Below, one piece after another: positions 563 through 60,128 of a stretch of 64,000 bases of DNA. The notes beneath the pieces were generated by a model. That model was given only the letters and a program-made list of their open reading frames with translations. It was not told where the DNA came from and did no database searches. The stretch spans positions 1,742 through 65,741 of the forward strand of contig JAKBYX010000012.1 in NCBI GenBank assembly GCA_021840255.1. The letters run 5' to 3'. Numbering within the stretch: position 1 is the first letter of the stretch; each line of letters begins with the position of its first letter. Source of the stretch: Nitrospirota bacterium. GTDB taxonomy: Bacteria; Nitrospirota; Thermodesulfovibrionia; Thermodesulfovibrionales; JdFR-88. Both the position numbers and the translations under genes were made by a program.

Positions 563-1303
563 TTGAAAAAGAAAAAAAGACTGGACATGCTTGTTCTGGA
601 GCGCGGGCTTGCGGAGACCAGGCAAAAGGCGGCCGCGCTTATTCTAAGCGGCATGGTCTATGTTGACGGCGTTCCCGCCACCAAGGCCGGGGAGGCGGTC
701 GATGAGGCGGCGTCGATAGAGGTCCGCGGCGGCCTGCAATATGCAAGCAGGGGAGCGCTTAAGCTGGAGGGCGCGGTAAAAGCCTTTGACGTGAGCTTCC
801 AGGGGAAGACCGTTATGGATGTGGGGGTCTCAACCGGGGGCTTTACGGACTACATGCTGCGGATGGGCGCAAGCAGGGTTTACGCGGTGGATGTGGGCTA
901 CGGGCAGCTCTATTACAAGCTGCGGGAAGACAACAGGGTTTTACTTTTTGAAAAAACCAATATAAGACACATGGACAGGAGCGCCATCCCGGAGGAGATA
1001 GACCTTGCAACGATAGATGTGTCTTTCATCTCGCTTAAGCTGGTGCTGCCCAGGGTGGTGGAGTTTTTAAAAAAGGGCGGCGAGATACTTGCGCTTGTAA
1101 AACCGCAGTTCGAGGTTGGCAAGGGTGAGGTGGAGAAAGGCGGGGTGGTGAGGGATGAGGCCAAAAGAAAAGCGGCCGTGCGATCCGTGATAACGGCTGC
1201 CGGGGCACTGGGGCTTTCCGTCATGGGACAGTATGAATGCGCTGTCCGCGGGCAGAAAAAAGGGAACATAGAATATTTTGTATATATGCGGAAGGTCTCA
1301 TAA
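563..1303 (+). CDS. tlyA: TlyA-family rRNA 2'-O-methyltransferase (S4-like + FtsJ-like SAM domain)
   Basis: 246-aa ORF with a TTG start at 563. It has an RLDxLVLERGL S4-type N-terminus, the SAM motif DVGVSTGGFTD and an LVKPQFE block typical of TlyA. Confidence 0.85.
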   Translation: MKKKKRLDMLVLERGLAETRQKAAALILSGMVYVDGVPATKAGEAVDEAASIEVRGGLQYASRGALKLEGAVKAFDVSFQGKTVMDVGVSTGGFTDYMLRMGASRVYAVDVGYGQLYYKLREDNRVLLFEKTNIRHMDRSAIPEEIDLATIDVSFISLKLVLPRVVEFLKKGGEILALVKPQFEVGKGEVEKGGVVRDEAKRKAAVRSVITAAGALGLSVMGQYECAVRGQKKGNIEYFVYMRKVS

Positions 1304-2091: not shown

Positions 2092-4083
2092 ATGAAAATA
2101 AAAAAACGCAGCACTCTTACAGACAATTCTGTACTTTTGCACTCCGGGTTCAAGGGGGAGCTGAAACCATTTCCCAAGGCGCCGGACCTGGCCATGGAAG
2201 TGGAAAGCGCAATAAAAAAGACGCAGTCTTTTTTCCTCGCGGACCAGCACGAAGACGGGTACTGGTGGTATGAGCTGGAAGCGAATGCCACCATCACCGC
2301 CGAATATCTAATGCTGCTGCATTTTTTAGGTTTAGAGGACCGCCGCAGGGACAAAATGATAGCCTCTTACCTCCTGGACAAGCAGAGGACGGACGGCACG
2401 TGGCCTATACATTGGGGCGGTCCGGGAGACCTCAACTGCACCATAGAAGCATATTTCGCCCTGAAGCTTGCCGGGTTGGGCGCCGATGCGCCGCCTCTCC
2501 GGAGGGCGAGGGAATTCATCCTGGCGCATGGAGGGGCAGCGGCTTCGAGGGTTTTTACCAGGATATTTCTGGCGCTGTTCGGACAGGTGGGCTGGCGGGA
2601 CCTGCCTTCGATGCCTGTGGAGATAATGCTTTTGCCCCCCAGGTTCCCCTTCAGCGTTTACAGCTTTTCAAGCTGGGCCCGCTCCACATTTGTGCCGCTT
2701 TCAATAATCCTGGAGATGAGGCCGGTGGTGGAACCGCCGGAGAGCGCCCGCATAGATGAGCTTTTCCTCAGGGGCGGCAAGGGCTACAGCCCCGGAAGGG
2801 ATCGCCTGCTTCACACAGCGATCAAAAAGTTCTTCTGCATGGTCGACAGGACCATGAAAGGCCTGGAGAGGTTCCCGCTCAGACCACTTAAATCAAGGGG
2901 GTTACGGGCTGCCGAAAAGTGGGTGCTCGAACACCAGGAGGAAACAGGAGACTGGGGCGGCATACAGCCTGCCATGGTGAATTCCATCCTGGCGCTTTCC
3001 GCCCTTGGGCACGGCGTGGAAAGCCCGCCTTTGCGGAAGGGGCTGGAGGCATTGAGCCGCTTTGCAATAGAGCAGGATGACGGGCTGGTGCTCCAGTCCT
3101 GCATCTCCCCGGTGTGGGACACCGCTCTTACGTCGATAGCGCTTGCCACATCAGGGGTCCCCAGGGAGCATCCGGCCCTGGTAAAGGGCTGCCAATGGCT
3201 GGAATCAAAGCAGATAGACAGGAAAGGCGACTGGAGCATAAAAAAGCCGGACCTTGAACCGGGCGGCTGGGCGTTCGAGTTTGAGAACAGCTGGTATCCC
3301 GACGTTGATGATACGGCGGTGGTCCTTATGTTCCTTGGCAACTATGCGCACAAGGAACATACAAAAAAGAAGATAGAAAAGGGCGTAGGATGGGTGCTCG
3401 GCATGCAGGGCAGCGACGGCGGCTGGGGGGCCTTCGATGCCGATAATGATCTTGAGGTCCTGAACCAGATACCTTTTGGCGACCTGGAGGCCATGACAGA
3501 CCCTTCCACCGCGGACGTTACGGGGAGGGTTCTGGAGATGCTTGGCATCAACGGGTTCAGCATCTCGGACCAAAGGGTGCAGCGGGCCATTGAGTTCATC
3601 CGCAAGACCCAGGAAGAGGACGGCTCGTTCTGGGGCAGGTGGGGCGTCAATTATATTTACGGCACATGGTCTGTCATCATGGGCCTTGCCTCCATCGGGG
3701 AAGACCTTTCAAAACCGTACGTGCGCAAGGCCGTCAGATGGCTGAAAAATTTCCAGAACCTGGATGGCGGATGGGGAGAGCGCTGCGAGTCCTACGGGGA
3801 TTGCAGGCTGAAAGGGCACGGCGCAAGCACACCCTCCCAAACGGCATGGGCCATACTGGCCCTGGTGGCGGCCGGCGAGGCCGGGTCCGTGGAAGCCGAA
3901 AGGGGCGTACGCTATCTTCTTGAAACGCAGAACGCGGACGGCACCTGGGACGAAGAAGAGTTCACGGGCACGGGTTTCCCCAAATATTTCATGATACGTT
4001 ATCATAATTACAGGAACTGCTTTCCGCTCATGGCCCTTGGCAGGTTTTTTGAGGCTAAAAAGAACAGGGCAAAAAAGGTATAG
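2092..4083 (+). CDS. shc: squalene-hopene cyclase
   Basis: 663 aa. Catalytic DxDDTA motif (WYPDVDDTAVV), several QW-type repeats (QGSDGGWGAF, QNLDGGWGE, QNADGTWDEEEF) and the N-terminal block DGYWWYELEANATITAEY. An alternative start at Met-35 (2194) is possible. Confidence 0.95.
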   Translation: MKIKKRSTLTDNSVLLHSGFKGELKPFPKAPDLAMEVESAIKKTQSFFLADQHEDGYWWYELEANATITAEYLMLLHFLGLEDRRRDKMIASYLLDKQRTDGTWPIHWGGPGDLNCTIEAYFALKLAGLGADAPPLRRAREFILAHGGAAASRVFTRIFLALFGQVGWRDLPSMPVEIMLLPPRFPFSVYSFSSWARSTFVPLSIILEMRPVVEPPESARIDELFLRGGKGYSPGRDRLLHTAIKKFFCMVDRTMKGLERFPLRPLKSRGLRAAEKWVLEHQEETGDWGGIQPAMVNSILALSALGHGVESPPLRKGLEALSRFAIEQDDGLVLQSCISPVWDTALTSIALATSGVPREHPALVKGCQWLESKQIDRKGDWSIKKPDLEPGGWAFEFENSWYPDVDDTAVVLMFLGNYAHKEHTKKKIEKGVGWVLGMQGSDGGWGAFDADNDLEVLNQIPFGDLEAMTDPSTADVTGRVLEMLGINGFSISDQRVQRAIEFIRKTQEEDGSFWGRWGVNYIYGTWSVIMGLASIGEDLSKPYVRKAVRWLKNFQNLDGGWGERCESYGDCRLKGHGASTPSQTAWAILALVAAGEAGSVEAERGVRYLLETQNADGTWDEEEFTGTGFPKYFMIRYHNYRNCFPLMALGRFFEAKKNRAKKV

Positions 4084-4108
4084 ACCGGGGGCCCGTTTTT
4101 CTCTTCGT

Positions 4109-4231
4109 ATGAAAGCGATGGTAATCTTTATTTTGATGAAAGTTTTGGCAATCTCAATATGAAGGCATCGGTAACAGTTTTATTTTTATTATGAAAGTAT
4201 CAATAATTTTATTATGAAAGTATTGGTAACC
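4109..4231 (+). repeat. five degenerate direct copies of the hpnA start (ATGAAAGTATTGGTAACC); the four upstream copies build three ATGA-chained mini-ORFs
   Basis: Units start at 4109, 4136, 4159, 4191 and 4214 (the real start). The upstream units match the real start at 13-15 of 18 nt by hand alignment. Mini-ORFs are 4109..4162 (17 aa), 4159..4194 (11 aa) and 4191..4217 (8 aa). Each stop overlaps the next ATG. Confidence 0.8.
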
Positions 4232-5254
4232 GGGGCCACCGGTTTTGTAGGGTTCCATGTGGCCGTGAAACTTGCAGGCAGGGGCGATGATGTCCGCGCG
4301 CTTGTCCGGGATGAAAAAGCCGCCCCAGAGCTTTCCAGGCTTGGGGTCGAGATGATAAAAGGCGATGTAAGGGATTTTGGTTCCGTTTCAGGGGCCGCGA
4401 GGGGCTGCGAGGAAATCTATCATCTTGCGGCTGACTACAGGCTGTGGGTGCCGGATCCCGCCCAAATGTATGGGACGAACGTGGCCGGCACGGTCAACGT
4501 GATGCGCGCTGCCATGGAGTCCGGGGCCGGAAGGATAGTCTATACCAGCACCGTGGGAGCGCTTGCCCCATCCAAAAAAAACGGGCCGCCCTCAACAGAA
4601 GACACCCCCGTAAGCCTCACGGACATGACCGGCCATTATAAGAGGTCCAAGTTCCTGGCTGAGCGGGAAGTGGAAAAGTTTTTTGCTCAAAAAGGTCTGC
4701 CTGTAGTGATCGTAAACCCGTCCACTCCCATAGGCGCCATGGACAGGAAACCTACCCCGACCGGGGCGATGATCGTTAGCTTCCTTAACGGGAAGGTGCC
4801 GGCATATCTGGACACCGGGCTTAATTTCGTGAACGTTGAGGACGTGGCGGAGGGGCATCTGCTGGCCGCGCGCTACGGTAAGCCCGGCGGAAAATACATC
4901 CTGGGCGGACATAACATGACGCTTAAGGATTTTTACCTGGAGCTCTCCGCGGTTTCGGGTATAAAGGCCCCCTCCGTAAAACTTCCTTACCTGCCCGTGC
5001 TTGCCGCCGCATACGTGAGCGAAGGTTTTTCACGGTTTTTCCTTTTTGGGAAAAAGCCCCCCGCCATACCCCTTACGGGGGTGAAGATGGCCGGGAAATA
5101 CATGTTTTATGATTCCGCCAAGGCGCAAAGAGAGCTCGGGATGCCGGTTACGCCGGTAAGAGAGGCGGTCCGGCAGGCTGCGGAATGGTTTGCCGCGAAT
5201 GGCTACGTGAGCTCAGGAAAGACAAGAAAGATAGGAGCAGCAATTTGCATATGA
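4214..5254 (+). CDS. hpnA: hopanoid-associated sugar epimerase / NAD-dependent SDR (HpnA)
   Basis: 346 aa. Rossmann motif VLVTGATGFVG, plus HLAADYRLWVPDP, GHYKRSKFLAE (YxxxK), VIVNPSTPIG and KPTPTG blocks that match the HpnA family. Sits directly after shc. Confidence 0.9.
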   Translation: MKVLVTGATGFVGFHVAVKLAGRGDDVRALVRDEKAAPELSRLGVEMIKGDVRDFGSVSGAARGCEEIYHLAADYRLWVPDPAQMYGTNVAGTVNVMRAAMESGAGRIVYTSTVGALAPSKKNGPPSTEDTPVSLTDMTGHYKRSKFLAEREVEKFFAQKGLPVVIVNPSTPIGAMDRKPTPTGAMIVSFLNGKVPAYLDTGLNFVNVEDVAEGHLLAARYGKPGGKYILGGHNMTLKDFYLELSAVSGIKAPSVKLPYLPVLAAAYVSEGFSRFFLFGKKPPAIPLTGVKMAGKYMFYDSAKAQRELGMPVTPVREAVRQAAEWFAANGYVSSGKTRKIGAAICI

Positions 5255-6045
5255 AAGACAGAAAGCTCGGAGACGAATGGTCCGGGTGGGACGGCGAACT
5301 GGACCAGCGGGATGTAAAAGTGGACGAGGCCCCGCGGACTTTCATCGTGTTGGCCGTAGTGATGATAATACTGTTTGTGGTCCTGTCCTTTATAGGGCTG
5401 TATATGATCCAGCCCAGGCTTGCACAGTTCAACCCGTCTGCACCGGGATTCGTGGAGACCCTGCTGATAGCTGCCGCTATTGCCTTTACCCTGGCCGGCA
5501 GCGTCTGGTGTTTTGCGCTTGCGAGGTGGAGAAAGCCGATCTTCCCCAGTAAATGGGTGGAGAAGTACGTGCTTTTCCTCCTGCCTAAAACCGTGTGGCT
5601 GGGCTCCAAGCTGGGCATCAGCAGGGACAGGGTGGGCAATTCGTTCATCAAGGCCCATAACAGCCTGATAAGGTCATATGCCGGGAAGTTCAGCCCCGAA
5701 AGGCCGCTTATACTTCTGCCCCGCTGCCTGAAGGCGGAAGTGAGGAAGGAGATACTCTCCATCGCGGGCGAAGGCCTGTTCAAGGTCGTCACCGCAGTGG
5801 GGGGGGAGGAGGCAAGGAGGGCAATAGAGGAATACAGGCCCACCTTCATTCTTGCCGTGGCCTGTGAGAGGGACCTTATGAGCGGCATGAAGGACGTGGC
5901 GGAGAAGGTGCCCGTGCTGGCTATCCCGAACGTGCGGCCGGAAGGGCCCTGCAAGAATACCAGCGTGCAGATGGACGAGTTCAGGGAAGCTGTAATATTC
6001 ATCAAGGAGGAGCTGAGGAAGATCTCAGAAAACAGCGGCCATTAA
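5251..6045 (+). CDS. DUF116-family membrane protein
   Basis: 264 aa from the ATG at 5251, which overlaps the hpnA stop as ATGA (the track ORF begins at 5185). Two or three N-terminal TM helices, then the LILLPRCL ... AVACERDL ... PEGPCKNT pattern characteristic of DUF116. Confidence 0.7.
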   Translation: MKDRKLGDEWSGWDGELDQRDVKVDEAPRTFIVLAVVMIILFVVLSFIGLYMIQPRLAQFNPSAPGFVETLLIAAAIAFTLAGSVWCFALARWRKPIFPSKWVEKYVLFLLPKTVWLGSKLGISRDRVGNSFIKAHNSLIRSYAGKFSPERPLILLPRCLKAEVRKEILSIAGEGLFKVVTAVGGEEARRAIEEYRPTFILAVACERDLMSGMKDVAEKVPVLAIPNVRPEGPCKNTSVQMDEFREAVIFIKEELRKISENSGH

Positions 6046-6049
6046 AATC

Positions 6050-7090
6050 GTGGAAAATAAAAAAAACAAAACAAAAAATAAAACGCGTTTTCAACCAGGG
6101 CTTTACAAGACCCTTACATGGCATTTCATAAAAAACACCCTTACGGGGAAAAAGCGGTTCCCTCTTGTGCTGATGCTTGAGCCGACCCACCGCTGCAACT
6201 TGGCTTGCATGGGATGCGACAGGATAAGAACGGCGGCGGAGGGCGACCTGCCTGTGTCCGCATGCCTGGAGGCCGCAAGGGAATGCGGGGCCCCGGTGGT
6301 CGCGATAACCGGCGGCGAGCCCATGATCTATAAGTACTTGCAGCCGCTTGTTAAAGGCCTGCTCAGTGAAGGCAAGTACATATACCTCTGCACAAACGGG
6401 GTGCTCGCGCAGGAATTCATAGAAAGTTTCACCCCACACCCCGCGCTTACCCTCAATTTCCATCTGGACGGACTGGACACCACGCATGACAAGATCACAG
6501 GTCTGCCCGGTTCCTTCAACAAGGCGGTGGAGTCCATACGGAAGGCAAAGGCAAAGGGGTTCAGGGTGAGCACGAATACCACCGTTTATAAGGCGTCCGA
6601 CCCCGGAGAGCTTGAGGGTCTTTTTGATCTCCTTTATTCTTCCAGTGTGGACGGGATGCTCATTTCCCCGGCCTTCGCCTATCAGAGTGTTGAGGACAAC
6701 ATATTTTTCAACCGTGGGGAGATAAACGAGAAATTCACCCGGATGTCGGGTTTCCTTAAAAAGTACCCGCTCATAAACACCCCCACATACATGGATTTCC
6801 TGTGCGGCAGGAGGCAGATGCGCTGCACCCCATGGGGCAATCCCACTTATAATCCGCTTGGGTGGAAGTCGCCGTGCTACCTGGTTACGGACAGTTATTT
6901 CCCCTCCTATGCCCGCATGATGAAGGAGACCAATTGGAGCCTCTATGAGGATGGGAAAGACCCCCGCTGCGCAAACTGCATGGTGCACGGGGGGTACGAG
7001 ACCACGGTCATGAGGATGGCCTTCACCAACCCGCTTGAAGGGCTGAGGCTGGCCTTCTGGAATTTCGGCTCCAACAACAAAAAACGCTGA
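6050..7090 (+). CDS. hpnH: adenosyl-hopene transferase, radical SAM (HpnH)
   Basis: 346 aa with a GTG start 4 nt after the DUF116 stop. Has the LMLEPTHRCNLACMGC CX3CX2C radical-SAM cluster motif and the ITGGEP block. Hopanoid gene context. Confidence 0.9.
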   Translation: MENKKNKTKNKTRFQPGLYKTLTWHFIKNTLTGKKRFPLVLMLEPTHRCNLACMGCDRIRTAAEGDLPVSACLEAARECGAPVVAITGGEPMIYKYLQPLVKGLLSEGKYIYLCTNGVLAQEFIESFTPHPALTLNFHLDGLDTTHDKITGLPGSFNKAVESIRKAKAKGFRVSTNTTVYKASDPGELEGLFDLLYSSSVDGMLISPAFAYQSVEDNIFFNRGEINEKFTRMSGFLKKYPLINTPTYMDFLCGRRQMRCTPWGNPTYNPLGWKSPCYLVTDSYFPSYARMMKETNWSLYEDGKDPRCANCMVHGGYETTVMRMAFTNPLEGLRLAFWNFGSNNKKR

Positions 7091-7099
7091 GAGCGCGTT

Positions 7100-8053
7100 T
7101 TGCCCGTGGGCCACTTCATTCACCTGCTTTTAGGCACCATCGCCTTAAGGCCCTATGTTTTCCTTTTCTTCCTGGCTTATCTTTTCGGCTGTTCGGCGCA
7201 GTTCGGTTATAAAAGGGCCCTGCTTTTTTCGGTCGCGGGGTATCTGATAGCGTGGGGCTCCGAGGTTTCCTCCATACACAACGGGTTTCCCTACGGTGCC
7301 TATTACTATATACAAAATACAGCCGGACGGGAGCTTTGGGTAAAAGGGGTTCCTCTCATGGATTCGGCAAGCTACGTCTTTCTGGCTTATGCCAGTTATT
7401 CGACCGCCCTCCTTGCGGTCTCGCCCCTTTTGCGCCGGCCGTCCAGCCGCCGTTTTTTTAAGTTTCCCTTTTTTGGGGATACATTTTTATTGGATACATG
7501 GGAAACAAGGGCGCTGGTTTCAACAAGGGTCCTTGCCGCGCTTCTTTTTGTCTGCCTGGATATCGTGATAGACCCGGTGGCGCTCCGCGGCGACAGGTGG
7601 TTTCTGGGTAAGATATACGGCTACAGAAGCGAGGGGGACTATTTTGGCATTCCGCTTTCGAATTTCATTGGATGGGCCATAGTGGGCTACCTGATGGTCT
7701 GGGCCTTTCAGTGGATAGACCGCCTGCTTGTGCGGTCTTTTCCTTTTGCTTTTGGCCGTGATCATTACGGGCGGGGGCTCCCGTGGAGGTTTGCTGTGGG
7801 CCCTGCGTTGTATGCCTCCGTGGTCCTTTTCAATATGTCAGTTACGTTTTACATAGGGGAAAGCAATATCGGCCTGGCGGACGCATTCATCATGCTCCCG
7901 CTTGCCGTGCTTTTTTTACTGATAACAAGGCTGCAGATCAGAAACTCGGATGAAACAGCCATCACACGGCACCTGGAGGATTTCCCGGATTCTTTCTCGC
8001 TCAAGGAAGGTGGGGGGAAAAAACTTCTCACAAAGACATTAAAAATTCCTTAA
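7100..8053 (+). CDS. DUF422 / 'carotenoid biosynthesis protein' family membrane protein (CruF-like)
   Basis: 317 aa with a TTG start. Polytopic membrane protein with the blocks GYLIAWGSEVSSIHNGFPYGAYYY, GVPLMDSASY and IDPVALRGDRWFLG...YFGIPLSNFIGW, which I recognise from the PF04240-type family. Confidence 0.7.
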   Translation: MPVGHFIHLLLGTIALRPYVFLFFLAYLFGCSAQFGYKRALLFSVAGYLIAWGSEVSSIHNGFPYGAYYYIQNTAGRELWVKGVPLMDSASYVFLAYASYSTALLAVSPLLRRPSSRRFFKFPFFGDTFLLDTWETRALVSTRVLAALLFVCLDIVIDPVALRGDRWFLGKIYGYRSEGDYFGIPLSNFIGWAIVGYLMVWAFQWIDRLLVRSFPFAFGRDHYGRGLPWRFAVGPALYASVVLFNMSVTFYIGESNIGLADAFIMLPLAVLFLLITRLQIRNSDETAITRHLEDFPDSFSLKEGGGKKLLTKTLKIP

Positions 8054-36134: not shown

Positions 36135-36175
36135 GCGGCCTGATGTAAAAGGGGCTTGCGCATGGCGCAACGAAC

Positions 36176-36210
36176 AAAAAACCAACGCGGGGTTAACGCG
36201 AAGGTTTTTT
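36176..36210 (+). terminator. rho-independent terminator after nuoN
   Basis: AAAAAACC-AA-CGCG-gggttaa-CGCG-AA-GGTTTTTT: a hairpin flanked by an A-run and a T-run, 42 nt after the nuoN stop. Confidence 0.6.
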
Positions 36211-36287
36211 CAAACAGGGCAGGCAAATACGTTTGATTTTACAAGGGGAGGTCTCATTTTTTTCTTTTTTTGGTTTTTTTGGTTTTC

Positions 36288-36316
36288 TTGACTATTGGCC
36301 CTGAATGTGCCATAGT
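36288..36316 (+). promoter_or_regulatory. candidate promoter of cspA with long 5' leader
   Basis: TTGACT (36288-36293), 17 nt spacer, CATAGT (36311-36316), preceded by T-rich tracts. This leaves a ~115-nt leader, as is usual for cold-shock genes. Confidence 0.3.
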
Positions 36317-36434
36317 GATAATTGGAGTTAATGGAGTCAATTATTACATTTAGAGTTAGCAAAGTCTTTAGTTGCGTTCCCTCTATTGCAGCCTCCTTGA
36401 AACTTCCAAAAACACCTGAAAGGAGGCACACCAG

Positions 36435-36635
36435 ATGACAAACGGCACTGTAAAGTGGTTCAACGAATCCAAAGGGTACGGCTTCATAACAGCTGAAGAC
36501 GGCACCGATGTGTTCGCCCATTATTCCGACGTTCAGAGCAATGGCTTTAAAACACTTGCTGAAGGCGACGCGGTGAGTTTCGAGATCACCGAGGGCAACA
36601 AGGGTCCCAAGGCCTCGAACATCGTAAAACTGTAA
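36435..36635 (+). CDS. cspA: cold-shock protein (CspA family)
   Basis: 66 aa with the RNP motifs KGYGFI and VFAHYS and an AAAGGAGG SD. Confidence 0.95.
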
Positions 36636-36772
36636 CAGGGTAAAAATGTAACAGGCGGGAAGCGGTCTTGAAAAAGGACCTGATTTCCGGCAAAGGCAAT
36701 GGAAGGGACGGTCAGAATAAACGCCGTCTCTCCCATTTCCGCCTTCGCAGGCAGCGCCTCCCGCTGTTATTT

Positions 36773-36797
36773 CGCGCTTCCTGGTAAGCGCGTTTTT
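36773..36797 (+). terminator. rho-independent terminator downstream of cspA
   Basis: CGCGCTT-cctggt-AAGCGCG is a 7-bp stem followed by TTTTT. Confidence 0.65.
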
Positions 36798-36861
36798 AAA
36801 AACAAAAAATAAAAAACAAAAAACAAAAAAAATTAAACGGCCGCACTGAAAGGAAAATGAA

Positions 36862-45851: not shown

Positions 45852-45944
45852 ATGCATATTTTCTACTGGATAGGCGGCATTGTGACGGCGGGCCTTTTGG
45901 TCTACCTGGTGGCCGCGTTACTGAAACCGGAGATATTTTCATGA
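45852..45944 (+). CDS. kdpF: K+-transporting ATPase subunit F
   Basis: 30 aa, MHIFYWIGGIVTAGLLVYLVAALLKPEIFS, with the KdpF-like signature (LxxYLxxALLxPExF). GGGAGAG SD. The stop overlaps the kdpA ATG. Confidence 0.8.
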   Translation: MHIFYWIGGIVTAGLLVYLVAALLKPEIFS

Positions 45945-47737
45945 GCGGAAACGACGTGCTGCAGATCGTGATCTATTTTACCGTCCTGGTTTTGCTTGCA
46001 AAACCGCTTGGCATATTCATGGCCAGGGTCTATGAGGGCCAGCCGGTTTTTCTAGGCCGCGTTCTGGGCCCTTTCGAACGTCTTTTTTACCGCCTCTGCG
46101 GCATCCAGCCGGAAGAGGAGATGGGCTGGAAGCAATACGCGCTGGCGGTGCTCCTGTTCAGCCTGTCCGGGATGTTTGCCGTTTATGCGCTTCAGCGCTT
46201 CCAAGGGGCGCTCTTTTTGAACCCGCAGAAATTTCCGGCCGTGACGCCGGGCCTTTCTTTCAACACAGCCGTAAGCTTCGCTACCAATACCAACTGGCAG
46301 AACTATGGCGGGGAGTCCACCCTGAGCTATCTAACGCAGATGGCCGGGCTCGCGGTGCAAAACTTCGTATCGGCCGCAGCCGGCATGGCAGTGCTCGTGG
46401 CCCTTATCCGCGGGTTCAAGAGACATGCCGCAAATACCATAGGCAACTTCTGGGTGGACATGACACGGGGCGTTTTGTATATCCTCCTGCCACTGTCCGT
46501 TCTCTATTCATTTCTCCTGGTTTCCCAGGGTGTTGTGCAGAGCTTTGACAAATACAAGACAGTCGCTTTGACCCAGGCGGTAACTTATGAAACCCCGAAG
46601 CTCGATGCCCTGGGCAACCCTGTGAAAGACGCAAAGGGCAATCCCGTTATGATGGAGTCTGAAGTGAGGCAGCAGCAGATACCCCTTGGCCCGGCTGCAT
46701 CCCAGGTCGCCATAAAGCAACTGGGCACGAATGGGGGAGGATTTTTCAATACAAATTCGGCCCATCCGCTTGAAGACCCCACGCCTTTTTCAAATTTCCT
46801 TGAGTGCCTGGCGATACTGCTGATACCGGCCGCGCTCTGTCTGACCTTCGGGGAGATGGTGGGCGACAGAAGGCAGGGCTGGGCCTTGCTTATTACCATG
46901 ATGCTGGTGCTTGCGCCCCTTACGGTTCTTGGCACCTGGAGCGAGCAGGGCGGCAACCCGCATTTTGCCTCCATGGGGATAGACCAGGCGGCTGGCGCAC
47001 TTCAGCCCGGCGGCAATATGGAAGGTAAGGAGGTACGGAACGGCATAGTAAGTTCCACGGTCTGGGCCACCTGGACAACCGCGGCCTCGAACGGTTCGGT
47101 CAACTCCATGCACGATTCCTATACCCCCCTTGGCGGCATGATACCGCTGGTGCTCATACAGTTGGGAGAGGTAATTTTCGGGGGCGTTGGCTCCGGGCTT
47201 TACGGCATGCTCATATTCGCCATACTCACCGTGTTCATAGCGGGGCTCATGGTGGGGCGCACACCGGAATACCTGGGCAAGAAGATAGAGATATTCGAGA
47301 TGAAGATGGCCGCCTTTATGGTGCTCATCGTAAATGCGCTCATTAAAATTGGAACGGCCCTGGGCGTTTCTACGAAAGCCGGGCTGGCAGGCATCTCCAA
47401 CCCAGGCCCTCACGGTTTTTCCGAAGTGCTGTATGCCTTTTCCTCCTTCGCGGACAACAACGGGAGCGCCTTTGCGGGCCTTAATGGAAATTCGCTTTTC
47501 TACAACACTATTGGCGGGATGATCATGTTCATTGGACGGTTCTGGGTTATCATCCCGGTGCTGGCCATCGCGGGCTCTCTGGCCAAAAAGAAGCATGTCC
47601 CCGCGGGGTTGGGGACGCTTCCCACCCATACGCCCCTGTTCGTCGTGTTTCTCATAGGGGTCATAGTGGTAGTAGGCGCGCTTACGTTCATGCCCAGCCT
47701 TGCGCTTGGGCCGATCGCGGAAATGTTTACGCACTGA
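45941..47737 (+). CDS. kdpA: K+-transporting ATPase subunit A
   Basis: 598 aa, polytopic, with KdpA blocks (NTNWQNYGGE, LGTNGGGFFNTNSAHP, NNGSAFAGL). Confidence 0.95.
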   Translation: MSGNDVLQIVIYFTVLVLLAKPLGIFMARVYEGQPVFLGRVLGPFERLFYRLCGIQPEEEMGWKQYALAVLLFSLSGMFAVYALQRFQGALFLNPQKFPAVTPGLSFNTAVSFATNTNWQNYGGESTLSYLTQMAGLAVQNFVSAAAGMAVLVALIRGFKRHAANTIGNFWVDMTRGVLYILLPLSVLYSFLLVSQGVVQSFDKYKTVALTQAVTYETPKLDALGNPVKDAKGNPVMMESEVRQQQIPLGPAASQVAIKQLGTNGGGFFNTNSAHPLEDPTPFSNFLECLAILLIPAALCLTFGEMVGDRRQGWALLITMMLVLAPLTVLGTWSEQGGNPHFASMGIDQAAGALQPGGNMEGKEVRNGIVSSTVWATWTTAASNGSVNSMHDSYTPLGGMIPLVLIQLGEVIFGGVGSGLYGMLIFAILTVFIAGLMVGRTPEYLGKKIEIFEMKMAAFMVLIVNALIKIGTALGVSTKAGLAGISNPGPHGFSEVLYAFSSFADNNGSAFAGLNGNSLFYNTIGGMIMFIGRFWVIIPVLAIAGSLAKKKHVPAGLGTLPTHTPLFVVFLIGVIVVVGALTFMPSLALGPIAEMFTH

Positions 47738-47746
47738 TTTTAAGGC

Positions 47747-47774
47747 AAAAAATAAAAAATAAAAAATAAAAAAT
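47747..47774 (+). repeat. (AAAAAAT)x4 tandem heptamer in the kdpA-kdpB spacer
   Basis: Four exact AAAAAAT units followed by TTTT, within a 61-nt spacer. Confidence 0.9.
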
Positions 47775-47798: not shown

Positions 47799-49904
47799 AT
47801 GGGCAGGAAAAAAGAAAGAAGCAAAAGTAAAAGTAAAAAATCCCTTTTTGAGTCAAGGATAATACGGCGGGCGCTCTGGGATTCGGTGAAAAAGCTTAAT
47901 CCCGTTTACCAGATAAAAAACCCTGTCATGTTCGTGGTGGAGGCGGGCAGCGTCCTTACCACCGCGCTTTTTCTTCACTCCGTCATCACCGGAAGGGGCG
48001 AGGCCTCCCCTGGTTTCATATTCCAGATAGCGGTCTGGTTATGGATAACGGTGCTCTTTGCCAACTTCGCGGAATCCATGGCGGAGGGGCGCGGCAAGGC
48101 CCAGGCCGACGCCCTCAGGAAGACCAGGCAGGAGGTCATGGCCAAGCGCATGACCAAGCCGCAGAGGGATACACCCAGGGATTCCAATGTCACGCAGGTC
48201 CCCTCGTCGCAGCTTAAGAAAGGGGACGTTGTCCTGGTGGAGGCGGGGGACATCATCCCGATGGACGGAGAGGTTGTAGAGGGAGTCGCTTCTGTGAACG
48301 AAAGCGCCATAACGGGCGAAAGCGCGCCCGTCATAAGAGAGTCCGGTGGGGACAGGAGCGCGGTCACAGGCGGGACGATGGTGCTTTCGGACTGGCTTGT
48401 CGTAAGGATCACCTCGAACCCCGGCGAGACGTTCCTGGACAGGATGATAAGCATGGTGGAGGGAGCGAAGCGCCAGAAGACACCAAACGAGATAGCCCTG
48501 GACATTCTGCTGGCCGGCCTCACCATTATTTTTCTGCTGGTGACCGCCACACTGCTTCCGTTTTCGATATTCAGCGTGAAGGCCGCTGGGCACGGCAGCC
48601 CCGTTACCATGACGGTGCTTGTGTCGCTTCTGGTTTGCCTGATACCTACCACGATAGGCGGTTTGCTTTCCGCCATAGGCATTGCCGGCATGGACAGGAT
48701 GATACAGGCAAACGTCATAGCAATGTCCGGCCGAGCCGTCGAAGCAGCGGGCGATGTGGACGTCCTTCTTCTGGACAAGACCGGCACAATAACCCTGGGA
48801 GACCGCCAGGCCACCATGTTCATCCCGGCCCCGGGCGTGGACGCCCATGTCCTTGCCGACGCCGCCCAGCTTTCATCGCTTGCCGACGAGACACCGGAGG
48901 GCAGGAGCATCGTTGTCCTGGCAAAGGAAAAATACAGTCTGAGGGAACGTGACATTCATGCCCTTGGCGCGCATTTCGTGGAGTTCAGCGCTCAAACCAG
49001 AATGAGCGGGGTGAACATGGACGGCAGGGAGATCCGCAAGGGCGCTTCCGACGCGGTGGAAAAATATATTCAGAAAGAGGGCGGGACTTTCCCGCAGGAA
49101 GTGCGCCATATAGTGGACGACATTGCCAGGCAGGGGGCCACGCCGCTTGTTGTGGCCGAAGGCAAAAAGGTGCTTGGCGTTATCCGTCTGAACGATATAG
49201 TAAAAGGCGGCATAAAGGAGCGGTTCGCCGAGATGAGGCAGATGGGCATAAAGACCATCATGATAACCGGCGACAACCCGCTTACCGCCGCGGCTGTGGC
49301 GGCGGAGGCCGGGGTGGACGACTTCTTGGCGCAGGCCACTCCGGAAACCAAGCTGAAACTCATACGTGAGCACCAGGCCGGCGGAAGGCTCGTGGCGATG
49401 ACCGGCGACGGCACCAATGACGCACCCGCGCTGGCCCAGGCGGATGTGGCGGTCGCCATGAACACGGGCACCCAGGCCGCAAAGGAAGCAGGCAACCTGG
49501 TGGACCTGGACTCCAATCCCACAAAGCTCATAGAGATCGTGGAGATCGGCAAACAGCTCCTTATGACCAGGGGAACTCTCACCACCTTCAGCATAGCCAA
49601 CGATGTGGCAAAGTATTTCGCCATCCTGCCGGCGGCGTTCATCTCCATCTACCCGGCCCTTGGAGCGCTCAACATAATGCACCTTGCCACCCCGCAGAGC
49701 GCCGTTTTGTCCGCGGTCATATTCAACGCGCTGATAATCATTTTTTTGATCCCGCTTGCGCTGCGCGGCGTTAAGTACAAACCCCTTGGCGCGCAGGTCG
49801 TCCTGCGCAATAACGCCCTTATATACGGCGTCGGTGGCCTCGCCGTCCCGTTCCTAGGCATCAAGCTCATAGACATGCTCATAACGGCGCTTCACATAGT
49901 CTGA
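47799..49904 (+). CDS. kdpB: K+-transporting P-type ATPase subunit B
   Basis: 701 aa with the DKTGTIT phosphorylation motif, TGDN and [17 protein letters not shown]. Confidence 0.95.
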
Positions 49905-58379: not shown

Positions 58380-60128
58380 TCAATTAGGATTGGCAGGCGT
58401 ATATAACGTGAGTCCGCCTATTACCCTTTTTTGCCAACCTCTGCTTTCGGCATATTCTATTAATGGCCTCTCCAGAAAAATATTTTCGAAGCCGGCGAGG
58501 ACAGCGCCGGCTGGCTTTTTCTGAAGAAGCGGCGGTAATGAATCCGGTCCGGTGCTGACAGCGATACGCCGCTGGTCATCTGAGAGAAAACGGCTATACC
58601 TGAAAATAAAAGGACCTGTTGACAATTCCGGATATATCCTTTCCCCTCCTTCAAGGGCGAATATAGGAGCGAGGGTAAGGATGGTTTCGTCAGGGCCCAC
58701 GATCTTCGAAATTTCTCTGGAAATGGCATAGACTTCGGTAGGGATCCAGTTTTCCTTTGAAAAAGCCAAAGCAATGTTTTCAAAAGTTTCTTTATTGTAA
58801 AGTGATTGCGCAGCACTCAGAATAAAAAGACCTGCGCTTATACATAAAATCATCTTTTTTATGGATTCCCTGTTGACCGCCGATATGCTTCCGTAAACAG
58901 CATATATAATCGCCATGAAAATAAACGGCACTGGCGCGGCAAAATACTGGACTTGTACCGGTGTAATAACGAAAGCAGCAATGAACAGTGAAGCTGCCAG
59001 CGATATGGATATGACAAGAGGTTTGTTCTTCCAGAAACGGCCTCTGCATATGCTTAGGGCCAGAATGAAGGAGAGCAGAAAAAGGATGAGGCTGGCCAGA
59101 TATGAAGGACTGGTTAAAACATTTACGGCCACAAGCAACTTTTCCTTAAAACTTATGGCTTCCTTCCAGCCTGGCATCCAATTTTGGCCCCCCGTAATGA
59201 TAAAGTACCGTATAGTGTCGAAGATAAAAGAACCGGGTGCCCTGAAAAAATAGTAAATTGGCAAGGCCGACGGCACTGCTGCACCTGCAAAAAAGGGCAG
59301 GAGCAATTTTTTAAACCTGTTCCCCTGAGAGACCGGGACAGGAGTAAAAAACGCCAGTACAATAAAAACTATGAGACCGGCAAAAGCAAAAGCCAACCGG
59401 GTAAAAACTGCAGCACCAGTAAGGAAACCAGCCAGGAACAGCCAGCGAGCCTTAAAGCTTTTCGAAAAATCTAAACCAGTCAATATCAGATACGCAAGAA
59501 TTATGCAGAGAATAGGGAAAGAATAGTTCCATGCGAATCCGCCGGCGCATTGTATCACAGGATTGAATGAATACAGTATAGCGGCAGAAACCCCCATCAC
59601 AAGGCCATAAATCCTTTGATGATGGAAAACACGGAGGAATGCCACCAGAACAAGAAACGCGGCGAGTATCGAACAGGTCACTGAAAAGACCCTTCCCGCC
59701 AAAAGGTAATTCGTTGTTTTGAAAATTGTGAAAAGGAAGGCATATATTACAGGAAGCAATGGCATTTGCAGATAGGCAAAATCCCTGTACATGACTTTCC
59801 CGGAAGCTATCAGGGCACCTGCGGAACAGTACACGTTCTCGTCATGATCAAACCCTTTCATTGCTGACCCAAACGAAAAAATGGCCAGTGTTGCCATGAA
59901 AATAACGGCTATTGCGTAAATTAAAACAATTCGCCCAGTTGTCTTTTTATGTTTGTATTGCTCCGGAGTATTATCAATAAAAAGTTTCATGGCGATATGT
60001 ATAAATGTTTCTATAAAACTAAAACCAATGAAATTATACCAGAAGCACTGGAGAAATTGGCATGATGGCTTGTCTGTTCCTGGAAAGGAAAGGGGGAAAT
60101 GTTTTTTCCCCCTCCCATGCTGACGCAT
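58380..60128 (-). CDS. GT-C fold membrane glycosyltransferase-like protein, low-GC
   Basis: 582 aa from the ATG at 60128, or 536 aa from the ATG at 59990. More than 10 TM helices and a first-loop acidic motif (FDHDENVY). Hand counts on four 60-nt lines give 32-52 % G+C, against about 47-65 % in gnd and tal. Confidence 0.65.
   Translation of the reverse strand: MRQHGRGKKHFPLSFPGTDKPSCQFLQCFWYNFIGFSFIETFIHIAMKLFIDNTPEQYKHKKTTGRIVLIYAIAVIFMATLAIFSFGSAMKGFDHDENVYCSAGALIASGKVMYRDFAYLQMPLLPVIYAFLFTIFKTTNYLLAGRVFSVTCSILAAFLVLVAFLRVFHHQRIYGLVMGVSAAILYSFNPVIQCAGGFAWNYSFPILCIILAYLILTGLDFSKSFKARWLFLAGFLTGAAVFTRLAFAFAGLIVFIVLAFFTPVPVSQGNRFKKLLLPFFAGAAVPSALPIYYFFRAPGSFIFDTIRYFIITGGQNWMPGWKEAISFKEKLLVAVNVLTSPSYLASLILFLLSFILALSICRGRFWKNKPLVISISLAASLFIAAFVITPVQVQYFAAPVPFIFMAIIYAVYGSISAVNRESIKKMILCISAGLFILSAAQSLYNKETFENIALAFSKENWIPTEVYAISREISKIVGPDETILTLAPIFALEGGERIYPELSTGPFIFRYSRFLSDDQRRIAVSTGPDSLPPLLQKKPAGAVLAGFENIFLERPLIEYAESRGWQKRVIGGLTLYTPANPN

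Follow-up and report, generated by a model that had tools for sequence, protein, structure and literature searches.

Decayed copies of the hpnA start as a putative termination-reinitiation relay in a Nitrospirota hopanoid operon

How do ribosomes reach a gene whose start codon has no Shine-Dalgarno (SD) motif before it and stands 130 nucleotides (nt) beyond the stop codon of the preceding gene? The question is raised by the hopanoid locus on a 64-kb stretch of the Nitrospirota contig JAKBYX010000012.1 (the window, meaning the whole stretch analysed), where the spacer between shc, encoding squalene-hopene cyclase, and hpnA, encoding a hopanoid-associated sugar epimerase, spans positions 4084..4213 with 32% GC, the flanking genes having ~55-65%. 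An earlier sequence-only reading had described this spacer as a series of four degenerate copies of the hpnA start, carrying three mini open reading frames (ORFs) chained to one another and to hpnA by ATGA stop/start junctions, and had offered three explanations: a termination-reinitiation relay delivering ribosomes from shc to hpnA, iteron-like sites for a regulator, or decayed slippage duplications. Following up that description in relatives and against randomised sequence, we lean, if only slightly, towards the view that the decayed duplicates of the hpnA start region which make up the array act as a termination-reinitiation relay, in which coupled upstream ORFs (uORFs) would lead ribosomes to hpnA.

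Taking the first 18 nt of hpnA (ATGAAAGTATTGGTAACC) as the reference unit, we scored copies by a mismatch scan and recovered all four at the positions previously assigned to them (4109, 4136, 4159 and 4191), each matching at 13-15 of 18 nt (Table 1). The hpnA start itself, at 4214, is the fifth and most downstream copy and the functional one, which makes five similar sites within 125 nt, at unit-to-unit spacings of 27, 23, 32 and 23 nt. That the spacer is not random was borne out by the comparisons that follow. At three or fewer mismatches the 18-mer is expected 0.02 times in 64 kb, and in 20,000 composition shuffles of the spacer the matches reaching at least 13/18 never exceeded one, compared with the four observed. 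Among the 46 gene starts of the window only that of hpnA has such upstream copies, and a position-weight matrix of the unit scores the five copies at 19-23 bits, the next best site in the window reaching 15.5 bits; neither the matrix nor the mismatch search found a further unit anywhere in the 64 kb. A repeat search additionally detected a 55-nt higher-order repeat (4128-4175 against 4183-4230, 71% identical) to which Unit 4 belongs, although Tandem Repeats Finder did not report the array, its copies being too degenerate and too unevenly spaced. An independent assembly (L030, 98% amino-acid identity) carries the same array, and the NCBI, ENA and Logan assemblies of relatives agree fully in their spacers; because independent assemblies of one lineage have identical spacers, the array is not an assembly artefact.

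The three ATGA-linked mini-ORFs and their translations were likewise reproduced. Since ATGA opens every unit and the frames stay compatible across the spacings, each uORF stops on the next start codon; uORF1 holds further in-frame ATGs at 4118 and 4136. The three junctions show the close stop/start spacing that characterises coupled uORFs, whether an overlap (-4 or -1 nt) or a separation by a few nt, and the start that they lead to is SD-less, in keeping with the weak or SD-less starts expected downstream of such uORFs. The profile match of HpnA to TIGR03466 begins at residue 1 of both protein and profile, so that the ATG at 4214 is the native start, and no GGAGG-type SD lies within 25 nt of it, in agreement with the earlier description. 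The organism does use SDs, since AGGAGG or GGAGG-type motifs stand upstream of many window genes; some others, shc included (cgtaaaaaaATG), likewise have no obvious SD. To that description we add the GGGGG at 4087-4091, which lies 17 nt ahead of the spacer's first ATG.

The origin of the units was traced in relatives, gathered by a scan of one genome per species (three close Nitrospirae metagenome-assembled genomes) and then by protein search and contig look-ups; a scan of metagenome contigs returned no close relative, its best match having 59% identity and lying on a fragment. Six in-group lineages with 80-98% HpnA identity (the window with L030; L001; L002; L053; L042, which is the L003 lineage; and L031) were compared with seven outgroup lineages at 63-70% amino-acid identity (L033, L036, L038, L040, L041, L057 and L059). 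In the outgroups, shc and hpnA are separated by 7-32 nt or overlap by 1 nt, and upstream copies are absent from all of them. In L033, L038, L040 and L059 the shc stop codon (TAG or TAA) is followed directly by ATGGGG(G)TTTTCTTCGT and then by the hpnA start, which reads ATGAGG in the first three and TTGAGA in L059; in L036 the same element comes after a 15-nt gap. L041 and L057 have lost the shc stop ahead of the element: in L041 shc runs through it and stops 7 nt before the hpnA ATG, and in L057 the two genes overlap by 1 nt (TGATG). Where the stop is kept, the element forms a bridging mini-ORF of 5-6 codons (MGVFFV, MGVFFR, MGFFV or MGFYS, each followed by a stop) that starts right after the shc stop, with TAG abutting ATG, in four of five outgroups, and after the 15-nt gap in L036, and that ends with NTGA on the hpnA start. 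In L040 and L059 it has five codons instead of six, yet its frame and its NTGA end on the hpnA start are kept. The GGGGG of this mini-ORF could equally be an SD of hpnA instead.

Against this background the window array can be polarised. Unit 1 follows GGGGG..TTCTTCGT, with GGGGGCCCGTTTTTCTCTTCGT immediately before its ATG at 4109, and this stretch is homologous to the outgroup leader GGGGG..TTTTCTTCGT. Because its 5′ flank matches that leader, Unit 1 marks the place of the ancestral start, downstream of which the later units arose. The GGGGG run at 4087-4091 is, judging by its outgroup counterpart, a relic of an ancestral SD-like element. Upstream copies number none in the outgroups, one in L042, two in L031 and L001, two plus a decayed remnant in L002 and L053, and four in the window and in L030. 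It is also clear which way the copying went: in the profile alignment M[KR]xLVTGATG is the HpnA family's own N-terminus, which makes the hpnA start the source. Slippage duplication followed by decay, the third of the earlier explanations, thus stands as the origin of the array: the comparisons support serial tandem duplication of the hpnA initiation region, namely a U-rich or pyrimidine-rich leader plus about six codons (M-K-x-L-V-T), ATGAAAGYNYTGGTAAC, and by its distribution the array is a local product of one clade of uncultured Nitrospirae. In the L042 lineage the hpnA start unit itself is split by an A-rich insertion of ~12 nt (ATGAAAGCAAAAACAAAAAAACTTGTAACC; L042:2501-2540, equivalent to L003:2987-3026), from which its HpnA has the N-terminus MKAKTKKLVTG instead of MKxLVTG.

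A common origin by duplication leaves open what, if anything, the copies do, and here the frame relations in relatives are the main evidence. In all six in-group lineages a uORF ends between -2 and +3 of the hpnA ATG (Table 1), and each ATG in the spacers of these lineages is chained to hpnA by stops and starts that overlap or stand no more than 4 nt apart; no spacer ATG among them reads out of frame into hpnA, and none is a dead end. In dinucleotide shuffles made for each lineage, a coupled uORF arose in 6-23% and complete chaining of all ATGs in 6-13%. Two 1-nt indels, 21 nt from each other, distinguish L002 from L053 and compensate, so that the 17-codon uORF stays open. This, the loss of one whole codon from the bridging mini-ORF of L040 and L059, and the place of the last unit, at -26 in four lineages but exactly 3 nt nearer, at -23, in the window, point to a constraint on the reading frame. 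Coupling is older than the array, in that the outgroup junction is either a one-step relay or a direct overlap. In the alignment of relatives that had been suggested as a check, coupling is kept in six of six in-group lineages; copy number and the form of the junction vary, and the outgroups have no copies.

What we infer from these relations is translation of the mini-ORFs, with hpnA output dependent on them. Under such a relay, ribosomes would either have just come off shc, which ends 25 nt upstream, or bind straight to the A/U-rich, weakly structured RNA. Initiation at 4109 (or in frame at 4118 or 4136) would be followed by termination at 4160-4162, overlapping the ATG at 4159, from which the ribosomes would reinitiate; the second round would end at 4192-4194, over the ATG at 4191, and the third, begun there, at 4215-4217, over the hpnA ATG, where a last reinitiation would open the SD-less gene. 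Three successive termination-reinitiation events would keep hpnA coupled and the spacer covered by ribosomes, with 105 of its 130 nt translated, despite its growth from ~17 to 130 nt. By analogy with a proposal for Mycobacterium tuberculosis (10.1101/2022.06.01.494293), such cover may protect against Rho-dependent polarity.

Several observations weigh against this relay or limit the evidence for it. Its least secure step is delivery from shc, because 19-55 nt lie between the shc stop and the start of the first uORF in the in-group lineages, a loose link that is within or beyond the reported range of coupling: in one study quoted in PMC12548453, coupling persists from -4 to +25 nt and declines gradually farther apart. 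The ATG is gone from three upstream copies, which have ACG (L001), ATT (L002) or AGG (L031) in its place while their sequence is otherwise conserved; two of them lie in frame within a longer uORF and in L001 an internal ATG takes over, but the conserved feature is clearly not initiation at each copy, and a constraint other than that may be at work. The four lineages whose last unit stands at -26 share this spacing by descent and are not independent. Spacer identity, which speaks for a constraint, exceeds that at 4-fold degenerate sites of hpnA both between the window and L001 (Units 1-2, 48/58 = 0.83 versus 0.62, p = 5e-4) and between L002 and L053 (57/64 = 0.89 versus 0.70, p = 3e-4), with the reservation that this comparison sets AT-rich low-complexity DNA against codons rich in GC at third positions (GC3). 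Finally, ATGA is built into the unit, so that one frame in three couples automatically. When the five cores were kept and the tails were varied in order and, by up to 2 nt either way, in length, 42% of randomisations had the last junction coupled, 8% gave a loosely chained array and 2.7% formed the perfect ATGA staircase; taken from the window alone, the staircase is weakly significant.

These figures lead to the main rival of the relay, which we regard as possible but doubtful. Under it the copies are neutral relics of slippage with no role, hpnA initiates by itself on an unstructured A/U-rich leader (SD-independent, S1-type loading), and the staircase follows from the ATGA within the unit together with purging of arrangements that block hpnA. 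Such an account fits the frequent coupling in the unit-preserving randomisations, the decay of the copies, three of them without ATG, the variation in copy number between close lineages, the lack of conservation of the uORF peptides among lineages, and the existence of other window genes, shc among them, without an obvious SD. It is at odds, however, with units more conserved than 4-fold sites, with the compensating indels between L002 and L053, with six lineages that contain no dead-end or hpnA-overlapping ATG at shuffle probabilities of 6-13% each, and with an ancestral junction that throughout the family is coupled, directly or through a bridging mini-ORF.

The relay is also to be set against binding of a regulator, in which the 18-mers would be DNA iterons or operators, or RNA sites, of the hopanoid operon and the mini-ORFs incidental. 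The conservation above the neutral level, even in copies without ATG, and the clustering of five similar sites would suit this idea, which was among those first proposed, but the comparisons do not support it and we think it quite improbable. The spacing is irregular and differs between lineages, which also sets the array apart from known iteron and operator arrays with their phasing and regulon sites; ATGAAAG is the most invariant part and decay affects the distal half, the upstream copies lack the GGTNACC dyad found at the real start, copy number varies by lineage with none in the outgroups, and no other site occurs in the 64 kb, the shc promoter region and the other hpn genes included. On the same absence of other matrix matches in the 64 kb, a dispersed operator or mobile repeat was rejected. 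By eye, no unit fits a CsrA-type GGA motif or a sigma-54 promoter (TGGCAC-N5-TTGC).

More improbable still is that the A/T-rich units are internal promoters from which hpnA would be transcribed separately, possibly as a leaderless mRNA from the A of its ATG. The low GC content of the spacer and a -10-like AATAAT at 4202-4207 (-12 to -7, 6 nt before the ATG) would favour this, as would a single threshold match in L002 (ATGAGA-18-TATATT, 9/12, 0.3 expected), which also tells against the relay. A consensus scan nevertheless gave no plus-strand sigma-70 match in the spacers of the window, L001, L031 and L053; the window hexamer lacks an acceptable -35 element and has no conserved counterpart ahead of hpnA in relatives, and promoter-like matches sit 5′ of shc instead. 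In the same four spacers no plus-strand intrinsic terminator was predicted.

Least probable among the alternatives that we graded, and barely credible to us, is a structured regulatory RNA in which a long-range stem between ~4079-4094 and ~4233-4249 loops out the array and joins the shc stop to the 5′ coding region of hpnA. The fold has a minimum free energy of -46.7 kcal/mol (z = -3.1), none of 200 shuffles folds as well, and the stem is also predicted in L030; it is not predicted in the other five in-group lineages, however, its 3′ arm is conserved coding sequence of the Rossmann motif, and Rfam yields only chance-level matches (E > 1) within 3500-4800 and none at gathering score in the whole window. 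The two arms are GC-rich, GACCGGGGGCCC lying just past the shc stop and GGGGCCACCGGTTTTGT being hpnA codons 7-12. A leader-peptide transcription attenuator is not supported, there being no plus-strand terminator, no conserved fold, no regulatory codon runs and no conserved peptide.

If the relay is accepted, its history invites a further proposal, which we put forward as speculative and rate as unlikely: a start-site ratchet, in which hpnA, having lost its SD in this clade, depends on reinitiating ribosomes, its start region is duplicated repeatedly, and selection keeps each copy as a relay step. The number of steps (1, 2 or 3) would then set the share of ribosomes leaving shc that reach hpnA, tuning the Shc:HpnA ratio and shielding the growing spacer from Rho or RNases.

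The relay would have clear relatives among described systems. It has been proposed that some short uORFs serve solely to bring a ribosome to an SD-less downstream start, and bicistronic expression designs make use of such uORFs; coupling through overlaps of -4 and -1 nt is very common (PMC12548453). In M. tuberculosis, NUGA and URRUG overlaps link uORFs to one another and to genes across the genome, and more than half of the downstream ORFs have no SD (10.1101/2022.06.01.494293). The array resembles these ribosome-delivering uORFs in its short, non-conserved ORFs, its 4-nt or 1-nt stop/start overlaps, its SD-less downstream start and its place within an operon. It differs in having three uORFs in series, all paralogues of the start of the downstream gene, in a step number that changes between close lineages, and in being a locus known from sequence alone.

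By organisation, the nearest natural analogue of the array is the mycobacterial interspersed repetitive unit (MIRU). As summarised in PMC12548453 from Supply et al. 1997, such units are repeats that lie in the spacers of operons and carry an ORF coupled to the following gene at -4 nt, an arrangement thought to make the insertion harmless to expression. Both consist of tandem units in an operon spacer with an internal ORF coupled in this way. MIRUs, however, are dispersed and apparently mobile at many loci, whereas the hpnA units occupy a single locus within 64 kb; and the hpnA units are paralogues of a native start that pre-exists in the outgroups, not foreign insertions, so that the array shares the tandem organisation and the -4 nt coupling of MIRUs and lacks their dispersal and the foreign origin of their unit. 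The two also differ in size, MIRUs measuring ~46-101 bp and the hpnA units 23-32 nt.

Direct coupling of the trpE-trpD and trpB-trpA type resembles the ancestral shc-hpnA state, with its 1-nt overlap in L057, its 7 nt in L041 and its bridge of 5-6 codons elsewhere, but in the window the genes are 130 nt apart and any coupling would run through intermediate ORFs. Leader-peptide attenuators of the trpL, pheL and ermCL type share with the array short ORFs upstream of a biosynthetic gene; the array has none of their regulatory codon runs, terminator/antiterminator hairpins, conserved structures or conserved peptides. The array is probably a local and unusual form of the translational coupling that is ordinary in bacteria. 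The earlier statement that no leader of this kind is described holds for hpn loci within the reach of a literature search on hpnA and shc operon leaders, which found none, but needs qualification in view of the close analogues elsewhere, namely uORF delivery coupling and MIRUs.

Table 1. Features of the shc-hpnA spacer, its relatives and the surrounding operon. Positions without prefix are those of the window; peptides end at a stop codon.
Feature	Position	Strand	Description
shc (squalene-hopene cyclase)	2092..4083	+	Upstream gene; TIGR01507, E = 9e-246; stop TAG 4081-4083
Ancestral hpnA leader relic	4087..4108	+	GGGGG (SD-like), then pyrimidine-rich stretch, CCCGTTTTTCTCTTCGT; counterpart of outgroup ATGGGGGTTTTCTTCGT right before hpnA ATG
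Unit 1	4109..4135	+	ATGAAAGCGATGGTAATC + tail TTTATTTTG; 14/18 match; at ancestral hpnA start position
Unit 2	4136..4158	+	ATGAAAGTTTTGGCAATC + tail TCAAT; 15/18 match; in frame within uORF1
Unit 3	4159..4190	+	ATGAAGGCATCGGTAACA + tail GTTTTATTTTTATT; 14/18 match; orthologous unit in L002 and L053
Unit 4	4191..4213	+	ATGAAAGTATCAATAATT + tail TTATT; 13/18 match; specific to window/L030 lineage
uORF1	4109..4162	+	17 codons, MKAMVIFILMKVLAISI; TGA 4160-4162 overlaps ATG 4159
uORF2	4159..4194	+	11 codons, MKASVTVLFLL; TGA 4192-4194 overlaps ATG 4191
uORF3	4191..4217	+	8 codons, MKVSIILL; TGA 4215-4217 overlaps hpnA ATG 4214
hpnA (hopanoid-associated sugar epimerase/short-chain dehydrogenase/reductase)	4214..5254	+	TIGR03466, E = 1.6e-130
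DUF116 gene	5245..6045		10-nt overlap with hpnA end
hpnH	6050..7090		4-nt gap after DUF116 gene
CruF/Caroten_synth (PF04240)-like membrane protein gene	7100-8053		9-nt gap after hpnH; hpnI further downstream
Last uORF, window and L030			Junction ATGA; MKVSIILL
Last uORF, L042			Junction ATGA; MRTQVSFFP
Last uORF, L031			Junction ATGA; MKAFVSVFYLRKAPVDFFI
Last uORF, L002			Junction TAATG; MRTSADFFYIKALAVFI
Last uORF, L053			Junction TGATG; MKLRRIFFHMKALAVFV
Last uORF, L001			Junction TAAgATG; MKVSADF; preceded by MVIFI, its TAA overlapping the MKVSADF ATG
Outgroup bridging mini-ORF	L033:2484-2504		
Outgroup bridging mini-ORF	L038:2484-2504		
Outgroup bridging mini-ORF	L036:2484-2504		
Outgroup bridging mini-ORF	L040:523-540		
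Outgroup bridging mini-ORF	L059:~670-690		

Beyond hpnA the operon is tightly packed (Table 1), and the order of the DUF116 gene and the CruF/Caroten_synth-like gene is kept in all related Nitrospirae loci fetched. In the 93-nt gap 5′ of shc, three sigma-70-like promoter matches cluster at 1999-2056 where 0.2 are expected (for example TTGACT-17-TATGTT with a TG extension); the cluster is likely the promoter, so far predicted, of a shc-hpnA-DUF116-hpnH operon, and its position fits one transcription unit.

Elsewhere in the window, the only other place with at least three nearby approximate copies of an 18-mer is a perfect (AAAAAAT)x4 microsatellite at 47747-47774, in the 61-nt spacer between kdpA (45941..47737) and a kdpB-like P-type ATPase gene (47799..49904). 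About 700 nt at 36140-36860 contain no convincing gene; they hold one minus-strand ORF of 104 amino acids with a GC3 of 0.39 (~0.65 elsewhere) and several small tandem repeats: TTTTTTGCT x3.8 at 36257, a 16-mer x2 at 36624 and, at 36798-36832, AAAAACA x4.7 together with an A-rich run. A minus-strand ORF of 583 amino acids at 58380-60128 has a GC3 of 0.45 against 0.6-0.7 in its neighbours and may be foreign or not a real gene.

The array adds nothing on the chemistry of hopanoids, and it is one locus in uncultured organisms, interpreted by comparative genomics. Were the ratchet to hold, hpnA would carry an evolvable translational attenuator, encoded in copy number and made from the gene's own start. 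If the relay works, the six in-group lineages, with one to four upstream units and junctions of the forms ATGA, TAATG, TGATG and TAAgATG, would amount to a natural series of constructs for the efficiency of serial reinitiation. The array would then be an endogenous counterpart of the role proposed for MIRUs, in an operon that tolerates or exploits the growth of its spacer by recycling copies of its own start as stepping stones for ribosomes.

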